Shown piece after piece: positions 2 through 10,508 of a stretch of 32,276 nucleotides of DNA (position 1 is its first letter; each line of letters begins with the position of its first letter). Both the position numbers and the translations under genes were made by a program. This stretch comes from a virus (taxonomy: Duplodnaviria > Caudoviricetes), in IMG/VR virus record IMGVR_UViG_3300005662_002409, positions 1 to 32,276 of that record; one strand, written 5' to 3'. The notes beneath the pieces were generated by a model. It was not told the origin of the DNA. It searched no databases and was given only the letters and a program-made list of their open reading frames with translations.

Positions 2-1003
2 AGTTGGGCAGAGTATCAAGAAAAGATTAATCAACAAGATGTTAGCGTAACTTGTAAGCACTGTATTAATCAGGATGCCGCCGGTATAAAAAGTTCCAAG
101 AATAACTTTTACAGTGACGAATTAGTCATCGGTGCATTCTTTGATAATATATGCAATTTAAAATGTGTTACCTGCGGTCCTAGTAATAGTACTCAATGGA
201 TCAAGGATTACCGCTTATATAAGCCAAAGCAGGATACTACAGCATGGAGTAAGCTACAAACCTATGCTCCTGCTAAATTAGACTTTATAAAGACCATTTT
301 AGCTGACACAGAGTTTAATAAATTACGATTTGAATTATACGGTGGTGAGCCATTGATTGGCTCACAGAGCTTACAGTTCTTAGATTGGCTCTATGAACAG
401 CCCTATGCTGACCGTACTACTATTGCTATTACTACCAATGGTACAACATACTTGCCCGACTTTGAACGTTACATTGATAAGTTTAATTGCAATATAATGT
501 TTAGCATTGACGGCACAGGTCCCGAATTCGAATACCTTCGTACAAATGCAGTATTTGACCAGGTTCAGGCTGTAATAGATTCTTATAGAACTAATCTTCT
601 ATTAAAATTCAGTGATCGAGTTCAGATGAGTTTTAACTATACCTTGTCCTGGATGAATAGTCTACACTTCGCAGACTTTCATAATTGGGCAACTAGCAGA
701 TACCCTGAGATGGATATAAAGATATCTGTATTAGAAGGACCTGGTGGCTTTTCAATTAATGCACTGACCCCAGGTGTAAGAAAAAGTATTTGCGAATTAG
801 CAGTTAGCAGGATGCCCTGTGACACTGACAGTAAGAACTTATATCAATTATCAATGCTGGCTAAAACTCCTTGGCAGGGTACGCAAGTGCTACAGTTTGG
901 TCTCAGAGATTTAGAAAAGCTAGACAAAATACGTAATAGAAATTACAAGGAAACCTTTAAGGAAGTACTAGCTCTGATAACCCACTCATACGATAAGTAC
1001 TAG
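2..1003 (+). CDS. Radical SAM protein (twitch/SPASM-type), 5'-truncated by the window edge
   Basis: The frame of ORF 353..1003 is open back to position 2 and encodes CKHC, CNLKCVTC (CxxxCxxC), ELYGGEP, ITTNGT and FSIDG. The listed 353 start is internal. Confidence 0.9.
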   Translation, partial: SWAEYQEKINQQDVSVTCKHCINQDAAGIKSSKNNFYSDELVIGAFFDNICNLKCVTCGPSNSTQWIKDYRLYKPKQDTTAWSKLQTYAPAKLDFIKTILADTEFNKLRFELYGGEPLIGSQSLQFLDWLYEQPYADRTTIAITTNGTTYLPDFERYIDKFNCNIMFSIDGTGPEFEYLRTNAVFDQVQAVIDSYRTNLLLKFSDRVQMSFNYTLSWMNSLHFADFHNWATSRYPEMDIKISVLEGPGGFSINALTPGVRKSICELAVSRMPCDTDSKNLYQLSMLAKTPWQGTQVLQFGLRDLEKLDKIRNRNYKETFKEVLALITHSYDKY

Positions 1004-6500: not shown

Positions 6501-6549
6501 GAATGGTGAAAATTACACCTATGTCAACTTAGAAGATAATTAACAATGC

Positions 6550-6625
6550 GCCCTTATAGCTCAGCTGGTAGAGCAACTGATTTGTAATCAGTAGGTCCCG
6601 TGTTCGAATCATGGTGGGGGCACCA
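6550..6625 (+). tRNA. tRNA-Thr(UGU)
   Basis: Acceptor stem GCCCTTA/TGGGGGC, anticodon arm ACTGA-TTTGTAA-TCAGT, T-loop TTCGAAT, encoded CCA; 76 nt. Confidence 0.97.
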
Positions 6626-6647
6626 GAATTTATAAAAGGATATCCAA

Positions 6648-6974
6648 ATGAAACAATATGCATTAGCACTAACGCTAGCTGTAGCATCAATGGGTGCAAT
6701 CGCTGAAACAGCAGACGCACAGATCAAGAAAGCTGACCCTAACAAGCAGTACATGATTGATCGTGTTGCTCAGTTTGATACTAACAAAGATGGTGTTGTT
6801 AGTGACAAGGAATTCTTTGCCAAGTGCCCAAATGGTGACAAGGCAAACTTTGCCAAGGCCGATAAGAATAGCAACAAGGAACTAAGTCAAGTTGAAATCC
6901 GCTTGGCTAAGGAATTTTTGTTCAAGGGCTGTGAAGCTCTTAAAGCTGGCGACAGCAAGAGCGACAGTAAGTAA
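6648..6974 (+). CDS. Secreted EF-hand (Ca-binding) protein
   Basis: Signal peptide ending ADA, two EF-hand loops DTNKDGVVSDKE and DKNSNKELSQVE, two Cys, AAGGA SD. Confidence 0.8.
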   Translation: MKQYALALTLAVASMGAIAETADAQIKKADPNKQYMIDRVAQFDTNKDGVVSDKEFFAKCPNGDKANFAKADKNSNKELSQVEIRLAKEFLFKGCEALKAGDSKSDSK

Positions 6975-6975
6975 T

Positions 6976-7056
<81 letters not shown>

Positions 7057-7059
7057 AGT

Positions 7060-7156
7060 TTGGGACTAAGCGGTGTAAATAGGGAACCCGCTGAATGTCG
7101 GACTGCTGGTAAAACCGTTAAATGTCACCTATGACATGCAGGACACAAGATCCCAA
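7060..7156 (+). ncRNA. Candidate structured ncRNA of unknown family
   Basis: Closing stem TTGGGA/TCCCAA, internal stems AGCGG/CCGCT, TGTC..CTGC/GCAG-GACA, GGT/ACC and TGTC/GACA, plus complementary loops ATAGG/CCTAT. Lies between tRNA-Ala and a terminator. Confidence 0.6.
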
Positions 7157-7162
7157 TACACT

Positions 7163-7193
7163 AAAATACCAGGGTAACACCTGGTATTTTTTT
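7163..7193 (+). terminator. Intrinsic terminator (possibly bidirectional)
   Basis: AAAATACCAGG-GTAACA-CCTGGTATTTT continuing into a T7 run. Confidence 0.85.
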
Positions 7194-7207
7194 CTAAGGA
7201 AACTCTA

Positions 7208-7432
7208 ATGTTTTATTTTTTAGTTGTGCAGTTCTTTACACTAGCAGGAAAACCACTAGGTGAACCCATTGTAGATACTGTGCATACTATGGAAGAATGT
7301 CAGCGGGCTAAAGGACTTTACGAAAGAATACTTGTTGAGCAAGGACAAGCGACCAAAGTCATTAAAGTCTATTGCTATAATAGAGAAGAATATAATGTGT
7401 TCGTTAAAGAATCACTGGCACATGTTGACTAA
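7208..7432 (+). CDS. Hypothetical small protein (hydrophobic N-terminus, 2 Cys)
   Basis: TAAGGA SD and ATG; fills the gap between genes. Confidence 0.7.
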   Translation: MFYFLVVQFFTLAGKPLGEPIVDTVHTMEECQRAKGLYERILVEQGQATKVIKVYCYNREEYNVFVKESLAHVD

Positions 7433-7440
7433 GTAGTGCT

Positions 7441-8076
7441 ATGAAACAGATAGCATTAGCCATACTAGCATTAATCACTGCCCAAACAGCAGAAGCAAAA
7501 ACCAAGGTCGCAGTAGGCGGCCAAGTGATTGCTGGCGGCAGTACAACAGCAAACGTAGCTGTAGATCACAGTTGGGAAAAAGGTCCTAAGCAGTACTTGG
7601 TAGACTTTGATTACTTCTACGATGATGGCAAGCGTAAACGCAATGACGGTCAATTAGAAGTTAAAGCTAACCAAAGCCTAGATACCAAGAACTATTTGTT
7701 TGTCACAGGCCGTGCAGATTATAACGAGTTTCGTGCTAATCAGGAAAAGTACATCGGTGGCATTGGCTACGGACGTAAGCTGGTTCGTAGCGAGCATGTT
7801 AAACTTAGCAACGAAGTTAGTACAGGCTTTTTGAAAAATAGAAATGGCTGGGAGCCTGTTGTTCGTAATAGTGTATGGGTATCTGTTAAGCTAGGTGACA
7901 AGAGCGAACTAGTTAACAAGTTTTTAGTTGAGCAAGGCAGTGAAACGTTTGTACGAAATAAGACTCAATTAAAATATATGGTTACAAAAAACTTTAACGT
8001 AGGTATCACTAATACCTATATCAAAGACCCTGCCAATAGAAATATCACACTATTCAATTTTGGCGTAGATTTTTAA
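7441..8076 (+). CDS. DUF481/YdiY-like outer-membrane beta-barrel protein
   Basis: Signal peptide (AEA), alternating amphipathic strands, GGIGYG motif and C-terminal FNFGVDF BAM signal. Confidence 0.75.
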   Translation: MKQIALAILALITAQTAEAKTKVAVGGQVIAGGSTTANVAVDHSWEKGPKQYLVDFDYFYDDGKRKRNDGQLEVKANQSLDTKNYLFVTGRADYNEFRANQEKYIGGIGYGRKLVRSEHVKLSNEVSTGFLKNRNGWEPVVRNSVWVSVKLGDKSELVNKFLVEQGSETFVRNKTQLKYMVTKNFNVGITNTYIKDPANRNITLFNFGVDF

Positions 8077-8080
8077 TCAC

Positions 8081-8109
8081 TTGACATAGTTAAAAATTAG
8101 TGTTACACT
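8081..8109 (+). promoter_or_regulatory. Sigma70-like promoter for tRNA-Val and downstream genes
   Basis: TTGACA, 17-nt spacer ending in TGT, then TACACT. Confidence 0.75.
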
Positions 8110-8134
8110 GGTATCACTAGTTAAGTAAATGCAT

Positions 8135-8209
8135 GCGGGATTAGCTCAGCGGTAGAGCGTCTCCTTTACACGGAGAGGGCCGGGAGTTCGATCCTCTCAT
8201 CCCGCACCA
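8135..8209 (+). tRNA. tRNA-Val(UAC)
   Basis: Acceptor stem GCGGGAT/ATCCCGC, anticodon arm TCTCC-TTTACAC-GGAGA, T-loop TTCGATC, CCA. Confidence 0.97.
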
Positions 8210-8225
8210 TTATTGCGAGTCGGCT

Positions 8226-8579
8226 ATGAATACTATCATCCTTATACTAACCTTACTTTTTATCAAGCATTTCATTGTAGACTATGTGCTTCAGAAAGCC
8301 TATCATTTCCAATTCAAAGGTATATACGGACATCCTGGCGGACTACAACATGCGGCATTACACGGCCTTGGTACATTCATTTGTCTATTCTATTTTACAC
8401 CGGTGGCCATAGCACTAAGTCTTGTTGACTTTGTAGCACACTATCATATTGACTGGATCAAAACTAAATTTGGTCCCAAGGACAATACTAAATCAATCTT
8501 CTGGGTATGGTTTGGTGCTGACCAACTTGCCCACGCATTGACATATCTGTGGATTGTCAACTTCGTCATCACTAATTAA
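8226..8579 (+). CDS. DUF3307 membrane protein
   Basis: Typical His pattern: KHFIVDYVLQ, HAALHG, HYHIDWIK, DQLAH. Confidence 0.85.
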   Translation: MNTIILILTLLFIKHFIVDYVLQKAYHFQFKGIYGHPGGLQHAALHGLGTFICLFYFTPVAIALSLVDFVAHYHIDWIKTKFGPKDNTKSIFWVWFGADQLAHALTYLWIVNFVITN

Positions 8580-8603
8580 TAATAAAGTAGCACCGAGGAA
8601 AAA

Positions 8604-9707
8604 ATGCACTTATCCCCTGACACTAAACTTGACTTTAAAGATGTACTGATTCGTCCTAAGCGTAGTACACTTAATAGTCGCAAAGATGTAGACCTAACAA
8701 GAACATTTACTTTCAAACACAGTGGCTGGGAATGGACCGGCGTGCCTATTATGGCAGCTAACATGGATGGTGTTGGTACACTAGCCATGGCCGAAGCATT
8801 GTATGAACATCGCATGTTTACCTGTTTGACCAAAGACACTCTAATAGAAGACTTTGCTGTTACGGTTAGCAAAATAGGCGGCAACTACTTTGCAGTAGGT
8901 ACAGGTACTGGCGATCGAGACTTTAGTAACCTACAACAAATTTTAAACACATATCCAGAAATTCATTTCATTTGCATTGATATTGCCAATGGGTATAGCG
9001 AACACTTTGCTGACTATGTTGGCAAAGTTAGGGCATTGTATCCTAAGCATACAATTATTGCAGGTAATGTTGTTACAGCAGAGATGACAGAGGAGTTAAT
9101 CTTACGTGGGGCTGATATTGTTAAAGTGGGCATTGGCCCTGGTAGCGTTTGCACTACTCGTATTCAAACTGGTGTGGGCTACCCACAGCTTAGTGCTATT
9201 ATTGAGTGCGCCGATGCCGCTCATGGTCTTGGCGGGCATATTATTGCTGATGGCGGATGTGTTTGCCCTGGTGATGTTGCTAAGGCTTTCGGGGCTGGTG
9301 CGGACTTTGTAATGCTAGGTGGCATGCTTGCCGGGCATGATGAAGGTGGCGGTGAGAAGATTGTCAAGTACTTTGGCACAGGTCAATACTTTATTGCCGG
9401 CGAAGATAGACTAGGTGTAAGTGACTATCAGCCTGTAATCGAAGCACGTGAGTTTGTTAAGTTCTACGGTATGAGTAGTCAGGCAGCACAAGAGAAGCAC
9501 GGCGGATTTAAAGACTACAGAGCCAGCGAAGGCCGTGTAGTCGAAGTGCCTTATCGTGGACCAGTTAGTGTTACTACCAAGGAGATCTTAGGCGGTATTC
9601 GCAGTACTTGTTCTTACGTAGGTGCTAGTAAGCTCAAAGAACTGAGCAAGCGAACGACTTTTGTTCGGGTGACTCAACAGGTTAATAATGTCTTCGGTGG
9701 AAAGTAA
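8604..9707 (+). CDS. guaC: GMP reductase (type 1)
   Basis: Contains [46 protein letters not shown] and YRASEG. No CBS domains. Confidence 0.95.
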
Positions 9708-10371
9708 ATTTAAACACAGCGATATCCTTATTGTTGGAGATAGCTTTTGTGCATGTAGAAATAAGGAATCTGATTGGCCTAATAAGTTAGTTGAATTGCT
9801 TAGTGGAGTATCATTGCCTGCAAGAGGGCAAGGGTTCGGTGGATGTCATTGGTGGAGCACCAGACAGTGCCTGGTCAATGAATTAGCAATTTCAACCCCT
9901 GAGGTACTGATACTATGTCACACTGATCACAGCCGCTTACCTTCAGATCAAAATTTTCCACTTAATCCTGCATCGATATTTGATAAACAGTCTGCATTGT
10001 TGCCAGTGCGTATTGGAAAAGATTATAGAGTAATACAAGAAGCGGCCAAGTACTATTACAAATACCTACAAAGTACCGCTTGGGATGAATGGACTGCTAA
10101 TGCATGGTATAAAGAATTAGATAGTTTAATTTCATCATATGATATCCCGTATGTCATACATTTGTTTGGATTTGAAAATTGTATGTATACGTTTAACCGT
10201 GGAATGATATCTAAGGAAATTCTTTCTTCGTTTAACATGGGGCAAGGTGTAAGGAATCACTTTTCTCAAGAAGCAAACATCAGTGTTGCCACTGCCATAG
10301 CAGACATGATCACTAACCATTACCAAGATGGAGTGATTAAAGATTTTAATTTGCTGAGATTGTGCAAATAA
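9688..10371 (+). CDS. SGNH/GDSL-like hypothetical protein
   Basis: IVGDSF block I, Gly-rich block II (GFGG) and a C-terminal NHF..EAN His motif. Confidence 0.55.
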
Positions 10372-10374
10372 TAC

Positions 10375-10403
10375 TTGACATCAACCAGCAAAGCATATAT
10401 ACT
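10375..10403 (+). promoter_or_regulatory. Sigma70-like promoter for tRNA-Ser
   Basis: TTGACA-17 nt-TATACT. Confidence 0.8.
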
Positions 10404-10419
10404 GTTGATATATTAGCAA

Positions 10420-10508
10420 GGAGGGCGGGCCGGACGGTAAGGCAGCAGATTGCTAATCTGTACATCGGGTTAACTGATGATAGGGTTCGACTCCCTAGCC
10501 CTCCGCCA
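10420..10508 (+). tRNA. tRNA-Ser(GCU), atypical D-arm region
   Basis: Acceptor stem GGAGGGC/GCCCTCC, discriminator G73, CCA, anticodon arm GCAGA-TTGCTAA-TCTGT, long variable arm CATCGG/CTGATG, T-loop TTCGACT. Confidence 0.92.

Follow-up and report, generated by a model that had tools for sequence, protein, structure and literature searches.

A compact folded RNA of phage tRNA clusters with a covarying kissing contact and a putative decoy function

Small RNAs have been known in the tRNA clusters of bacteriophages for decades. RNAs C and D (species 1 and 2) of phage T4 are 100-140 nt long, lie directly after the CCA of a tRNA and have no known role (PMC3014915, PMC9697503); they were described in the 1970s, and such orphan RNAs have stayed unexplained since (PMC4933390). 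The same source lists sRNA2 of phage PAK_P3, an abundant late small RNA between phage tRNA genes. GOLLD (RF02032) and ROOL are phage RNAs of unknown function whose kissing loops covary and which lie close to tRNA islands (PMC12286853). Theta ribozymes, which are HDV-like, are small pseudoknotted RNAs often placed within 5 nt of the 3′ end of a phage tRNA, and have a nested double pseudoknot with a catalytic C at the start of J4/2 (PMC10879173).

The locus studied here lies in a stretch of 32,276 nucleotides (the window), a fragment of an uncultured jumbo phage whose record is about 6% complete. The window encodes a family B DNA polymerase, a clamp loader, an ATP-dependent protease, PhoH, MetK and an IMPDH-like protein; the polymerase is closest, among cultured phages, to those of Sinorhizobium phage Phosso (51%) and Agrobacterium phage Atu_ph07 (45%). 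Four tRNA genes, all on the + strand, span 6550-10508. A preliminary description had proposed an unannotated multibranch RNA with kissing loops between tRNA-Ala and a terminator. Checked on the sequence, all its helices and the ATAGG/CCTAT complement were found where it had placed them; the element is separated by 3 nt from the tRNA-Ala CCA upstream and by 6 nt from a terminator-like hairpin downstream, and neither ARAGORN nor Rfam made a call on it, in line with the claim that it is not a tRNA cloverleaf. Like T4 RNA D, the element lies on the same strand as the tRNAs of a phage cluster, whereas its sequence core and fold differ from those of RNAs C and D, and T4 is without it. The features of the locus are as follows.

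6550-6625, + strand: tRNA-Thr(TGT)
6648-6974, + strand: EF-hand-like small ORF between tRNA-Thr and tRNA-Ala (EF-hand below the Pfam cut-off)
6981-7056, + strand: tRNA-Ala(TGC) with encoded CCA, directly upstream of the element
7060-7156, + strand: whole element, read as a structured RNA gene of 97 nt (covariance model R1 73.1 bits, as a seed member; R2 62.6 bits)
7060-7067, + strand: P1 5′ strand, pairing with 7148-7156, A7150 bulged (two-sided changes in 8/8 columns)
7069-7092, + strand: P2 hairpin, 7069-73/7088-92, with the 14-nt loop L2 (covariation in 6/6 columns)
7079-7083, + strand: L2 kissing strand AUAGG (ATAGG in DNA; 11 complementary versions among loop classes)
7096-7106, + strand: P3a 5′ strand 7096-99, GGA bulge 7100-02, P3b 5′ strand 7103-06
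7096-99/7142-45, + strand: P3a (read by eye in homologs, e.g. L043)
7103-06/7138-41, + strand: P3b (near-invariant U-A, G-C and C-G pairs; the outer pair covaries)
7107-7117, + strand: P4 hairpin, 7107-10/7114-17, with a U.G pair, a G-C pair, two variable pairs and a 3-nt loop (97.5% paired)
7118-7123, + strand: J4/5 junction strand N-UAAAU, the most conserved unpaired stretch
7124-7135, + strand: P5 hairpin, 7124-26/7133-35, with the 6-nt loop L5 at 7127-32 (3/3 pairs covary)
7128-32, + strand: L5 kissing partner CCUAU (CCTAT in DNA)
7138-7156, + strand: 3′ strands of P3b (7138-41), P3a (7142-45) and P1 (7148-56)
7163-7193, + strand: intrinsic-terminator-like hairpin, 7163-73/7180-90, plus T run (z -4.58, 0/200 shuffles as good)

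P1 comprises 7060-65/7151-56, extended by 7066-67/7148-49 to eight pairs around the bulged A7150, and is an uninterrupted 8-bp helix in the homologs L002 and L176. In L002, two compensatory changes turn P2 from AGCGG/CCGCT into AGTAG/CTACT. We take UGUA...GAA in L2 to be, probably, a bulged-G motif of the sarcin-ricin type, and the UAAAU strand presumably packs against P3b. The covariation-supported fold has two three-way junctions and one kiss. As a single sequence, the element folds only marginally better than its shuffles (z -1.9, 8/200 as good; z -2.1, 9/200); the fold is taken as non-random because of the comparative evidence, not because of single-sequence folding. Three other readings of these parts were rejected. 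A resemblance of 7079-7106 to a cobalamin riboswitch fails as L002 breaks the alternative helix and supports P2; mimicry of the sarcin-ricin loop through GAGA fails as GAGA is a covarying kiss and reads UAGG in the window; pairing of UGGU in P4 with the ACCA end of a tRNA, as known from the T-box or RNase P, fails as these positions covary as P4 pairs.

The hairpin at 7163-7193 was missed by a consensus terminator scan and found by folding; it would function as an intrinsic terminator. It belongs to the window locus and not to the family, since an identical RNA lies between tRNA-Phe and tRNA-Leu in other contigs. Upstream, tRNA-Thr and the EF-hand-like ORF are probably in one transcription unit with the element; a promoter-like site at 6512-6540 is no more than chance would give (8 such sites here, 9.4 in shuffles). 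A DUF481 ORF (7441-8076) lies downstream.

The family was assembled in several ways. An exact 20-mer scan returned one relative, L002, inside a tRNA cluster, and a metagenome scan returned four contigs with an identical RNA between tRNA-Phe and tRNA-Leu and unrelated flanks; in L021, which was aligned, 7060-7159 is the same letter for letter. A BLAST match with an E-value of 1 in phage BUCT-ZZ01 (L043) is a distant homolog in which every helix has been rewritten, and it revealed the core. Three core-based pattern scans of IMG/VR gave 64, 34 and 99 loci, and the IMG/VR loci with 54 genome matches made 255 matches with 146 distinct cores. Covariance model R1, built from 17 sequences, was run on 97 sources, namely the window, L380, L198 and, for each distinct viral core, a single locus, and gave 92 matches. 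Candidate phage sources scored above the best chance score of 27.5 bits in 84 of 97 cases, 17 of the 84 being seeds; chance level is given by 53 other cellular loci, which hold the exact core by construction and reach at most 27.5 bits. The statistics below use the top 85 R1 rows, the 7 lowest having been dropped, plus L387 where stated. The genome-scan matches look like chance in 53 of 54 cases (at most 27.5 bits; 47/53 within open frames); the exception, L198, is a 3.1-kb MAG contig that around the element is nearly identical to the viral L150. A plasmid search gave one partial match (E 0.3). Patterns based on GTCGGACTG were discarded as a probe for the family, as they gave mostly chance matches (7/8 and 20/25 loci). 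Cultured carriers are Amme-3 (Pseudomonas putida KT2440), Milchi (Pseudomonas poae) and BUCT-ZZ01; Astolliot has a BLAST match only. In Amme-3 (record PP496413) the element spans 92319-92420. Carrier phages span 97 to 490 kb, the L328 record having 490,380 nt. Rfam searches of homolog loci (3, 20 and 8 loci at E up to 1, 0.5 and 10) gave no match on the element, bar an antisense sub-threshold overlap in L161. The homologs in phage tRNA clusters support the earlier reading of the element as a phage non-coding RNA of a tRNA cluster without Rfam match.

Covariation among the homologs, which had been named as a check, was found in all five modelled helices and in the kiss. In alignment A5 (all 92 rows, 91 distinct), which is biased towards the five nested helices because it was fitted to them, 88.1% of cells are paired, vs 63.9% in shuffled sequences and 29-44% with slid partners, and 26 of the 31 pairs have two-sided changes. 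The P1 helix score is 20.3 vs 14.5 permuted, and the inner pair of P4 occurs as UA (54), CG (20), GC (7) and AU (2). The kiss columns, which lie outside the model fit, are 83.3% paired in A5 (53/56, 64/64, 61/63 and 59/63, the outermost being mostly unpaired at 22/65), a covariation compatible both with a kiss within one molecule and with a kiss between molecules. By loop class there are 11 versions of the kiss: AUAGG/CCUAU, the class of the window, (U)GAGA/UCUC(A), CGGGA/UCCCG, AUGGUU/AACCAU, AUGGGU/ACCCAU, UGGG/CCCA, GAGG/CCUC, CUGUC/GACAG, UGCGG/CCGCA, UGUGAG/CUCACA and AUGGA/UCCAU. When loops were permuted among 15 classes (one representative each), the own loop made 4.75 bp vs 3.64 +/- 0.17 for swapped loops and 0/300 draws reached it, in a test that leaves out some rows mis-anchored in parsing and those without a parsed P5 (12/86); a narrower-window kiss test on 17 non-UCUC loops gave 6/5000.

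Near-invariant in the RNA are UGC/GCA of P3b, the UAAAU strand and, within P4, the U.G and G-C pairs. As each of the three scan patterns required UAAAU, independent evidence for it comes only from the window and from L043, L380 and L387, which BLAST found; GCUG...CG is present in all 17 correctly anchored members unmatched by the patterns that fix it, these members still having been chosen by model score. Lengths are tightly kept, with a median of 12 nt from the end of P2 to P3b and a median total of 107 nt. As the exposed loop letters vary freely while the shape is kept, recognition by shape is argued for, and not antisense pairing. The comparative evidence thus establishes the predicted secondary structure, the L2-L5 complementarity and the tRNA-cluster location, and the element is almost certainly a folded RNA gene.

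A tRNA or tmRNA gene lies within about 0.5 kb of 62 of the 85 members, and the 150 tRNA genes counted there are all on the same strand as the element, none on the opposite one. In 43/85 members such a gene lies within 30 nt, with 31 upstream and 17 downstream neighbours; 54/85 have no tRNA detected within 30 nt upstream. The element starts within 5 nt of a tRNA end in the window and in 23/85, and not in the remainder. The 31 adjacent upstream tRNAs belong to 15 types, so that there is no cognate tRNA, and 27 of them already encode CCA. Among the 3-kb loci, 27/30 have tRNAs and 3/30 have none within 1.5 kb, compared with 3 tRNAs in all in the 53 control loci; a 100-codon open frame contains 11/85 members vs 47/53 controls. 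Of 43 flanking ORFs in 28 loci, 13 matched a PHROG and no best family occurred twice; hence no phage protein accompanies the element as a constant neighbour. In BUCT-ZZ01, whose listed host is Synechococcus, an unannotated permuted tmRNA of betaproteobacterial type (L043 666-1023) follows the element directly. In L149, L152 and L251 the element lies 12-14 nt after a tRNA with a CUA (amber-suppressor-type) anticodon. L002 has at about 662-748 (-) another unannotated element with an end-to-end helix, between tRNA-Phe and the element, for which Rfam gave no match at E up to 1.

Searched with model R2, the 37 records already known as carriers each gave a single copy. The model found no copy in 14/14 other cultured phages, including T4, three other RNA D phages, T5, KVP40, XacN1, RsoM2USA, Phosso and 121Q, or in 21/21 PolB-related contigs, mostly fragments with one complete; the element is also absent from PAK_P3 and PA5oct. 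Two copies 660 nt apart occur on four contigs (L131/L132, L162/L163, L170/L171 and L181/L182), each following a tRNA-Gly where checked (L131, L132, L181). The homologs establish a patchy distribution among phages and exchange as an intact cassette. Within the range of the searches the element is specific to phages; it is accessory, and phages exchange it as they do tRNA genes.

Two members depart from the standard form. In L350 (452-580) and L142 (440-570, -), the P3-P4-P5 core takes the place of the anticodon arm, flanked by D-like and T-like arms on a stem resembling an acceptor, and the linker contains the kissing strand; L144 is a borderline third case (E 0.0086). A scan for more such variants, whose pattern gap was one base too short, returned 6 loci with one unrelated sequence. 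About 250 nt upstream, the L350 locus repeats its T-like arm. A set of acceptor, D-like and T-like arms that lacks the anticodon arm is also found in YrlA (RF02553) and the tRNA-like domain of tmRNA; unlike these, the element has no tag ORF and no Rfam match, and its standard form no T-arm. Y RNAs are typically encoded beside Ro60/TROVE; this protein was found in 4 of 51 carrier records, in all of them more than 60 kb from the element. A T-arm occurs in 3/89 rows; the standard form has none, nor an anticodon-like conserved loop, and rarely a 3′ CCA tail (7/86), and is therefore not an obvious tRNA mimic. As to PAK_P3 sRNA2, its sequence as listed in PMC4933390 is without the core, and PAK_P3 gives no match to the model.

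In RNA libraries, contigs span 7060-7159 without a difference in 2/4 runs, from two studies; they run into tRNA-Phe and tRNA-Leu on L021, at a depth of 3-6. With no silent-stretch control, these contigs are weakly compatible with a precursor transcript and show neither transcription nor processing. Runs X1, X3, X6 and X8 leave the element uncovered on the stretch compared and carry no weight.

A kiss between molecules would make the RNA a dimer, a ring or a small RNA-only cage, like a miniature ROOL or GOLLD or like phi29 pRNA. This is unlikely in our judgement. The covariation-predicted kisses of ROOL and GOLLD proved intermolecular (PMC12286853), both share the tRNA-island setting, and no protein partner was found among the flanking ORFs; a GOLLD 3′ fragment (L021 1-187; 59 bits, below gathering, cut by the locus end) even lies in the same tRNA cluster as an identical element. 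On the other hand, many GOLLD RNAs exceed 800 nt against about 100 nt here; the element has a single kissing pair, without Rfam match, and its loops are not self-complementary; its arm lengths are tightly conserved, as we would expect for closure within one molecule; and a junction, instead of the P2 loop, supplies the partner strand in L315, L362, L350 and L142. A role as a new catalytic RNA, self-cleaving or other, in the processing of the tRNA precursor is in our view rather improbable. The RNA is small, pseudoknotted and phage-borne with a near-invariant core, and the 23/85 members that start at most 5 nt from a tRNA end have the position of theta ribozymes (PMC10879173). The tRNA-trailer ribozyme suggested in the preliminary description finds no support, the fold being unlike those of HDV and theta ribozymes: the nested double pseudoknot with its catalytic C is absent, the two ends pair with each other, and members also stand before tRNAs or away from them. 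Moreover, the conserved bases are those of the distal junction, with free variation at the 5′ end and in P1; no upstream tRNA was detected for many members (54/85 within 30 nt), no Rfam ribozyme family matches, and CCA is encoded by 27/31 upstream tRNAs vs 4.5% of theta-linked tRNAs (PMC10879173).

The lack of a protein partner among the flanking ORFs would also suit an aptamer-like RNA that soaks up or senses a metabolite or ion, working without an expression platform, and the element could be likened to the purine, lysine and FMN aptamers, in which a junction with invariant bases is closed by a kissing loop. Riboswitches typically have an expression platform and form the leader of genes of one consistent class; the element is not such a leader, as 43/85 members abut a tRNA or tmRNA gene, flanking ORFs are unrelated and downstream genes have no common family. 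Its invariant unpaired bases are mostly A, which would be typical of packing contacts, and we think a sponge quite unlikely. That the element is only a folded spacer acting in cis, guiding or protecting the processing of tRNA precursors, appears distinctly improbable: all 150 nearby tRNA genes share its strand and it often abuts them, but a spacer needs neither a near-invariant core nor a covarying tertiary contact, 3/30 wider loci have no tRNA within 1.5 kb, and the element moves unchanged between tRNA contexts. Least credible is a distant relationship to T4 species 2 RNA (RNA D), to which we give hardly any weight. In both, GTCGGACTG follows a hairpin and the RNA comes right after the CCA of a tRNA. 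Yet neither family conserves this shared 9-mer, 12 RNA D loci gave no match to the family model (E up to 10), neither the window nor 46 member loci gave one to an RNA D model (E up to 5), and the invariant bulged-U closing helix and UCCCUG junction of RNA D (12/12 homologs) are absent from the element.

Some observations concern RNA D itself. Its homologs reach Karamvirus, Jiaodavirus and Vequintavirinae (L001 1054-1172 (-), L011-L017, L125-L128) and have an invariant 6-bp helix with a bulged U, paired in 12/12 with one G-C to A-U change, which we take to be reminiscent of the P4 helix of RNase P. A hairpin loop, CCTCAACGAT, occurs both in the inserted arm of L161 (near 477, counted on the - strand) and, in five homologs of RNA D (L015, L125-L128), in the variable arm, and is perhaps a reusable protein-binding module. 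L125-L128, from Karamvirus and Jiaodavirus, also hold an unannotated element of about 135 nt with an end-to-end helix between RNA D and tRNA-Asp.

We favour an RNA that acts by its shape. The conserved shape with changing loop letters, the lack of a travelling phage partner and the patchy presence favour a shape-based decoy or ligand; that the RNA acts in trans we consider likely, and that it is a decoy for a protein is our leading but tentative proposal, held with rather less than even confidence. The element would be co-transcribed with the phage tRNAs and released by host tRNA-maturing nucleases as a stable RNA of about 100 nt, its ends protected by P1; the release route would be RNase P at a downstream tRNA, and RNase E with trimming elsewhere. 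The kiss would then tie P2 to P5 within a single molecule and give a closed, compact fold, and in this form the RNA would engage a host protein involved in tRNA handling or translation, as its decoy or ligand.

In the literature searched, with few subscription papers in it, no description of the family was found, also when the motif letters were used. A catalogue of 8,495 candidate structured RNAs from IMG/VR is available (PMC10690425); the tables searched there gave no match to four motif strings or six contig ids, and the family could be an unnamed candidate in the catalogue. On sequence grounds it is a real phage RNA family, uncatalogued as far as searched, with a well-supported fold.

With a small, well-supported fold, natural compensatory versions of the kiss and a cultured carrier (Amme-3), the function of the family is testable, and a compact natural RNA fold that is new deserves attention whatever its function turns out to be. 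More speculatively, and with low probability, the core may be a portable RNA domain that serves as an RNA-only counter-defence for the phage tRNA supply, a decoy for tRNA-cleaving defence toxins or another tRNA-binding host factor; in this reading the core is both free-standing and grafted into the anticodon-arm place of a chargeable tRNA frame (L350, L142). If it were true, the family would be a widespread class of RNA anti-defence gene and would hint at the reason for which orphan RNAs are retained in the midst of tRNA genes by large phages.
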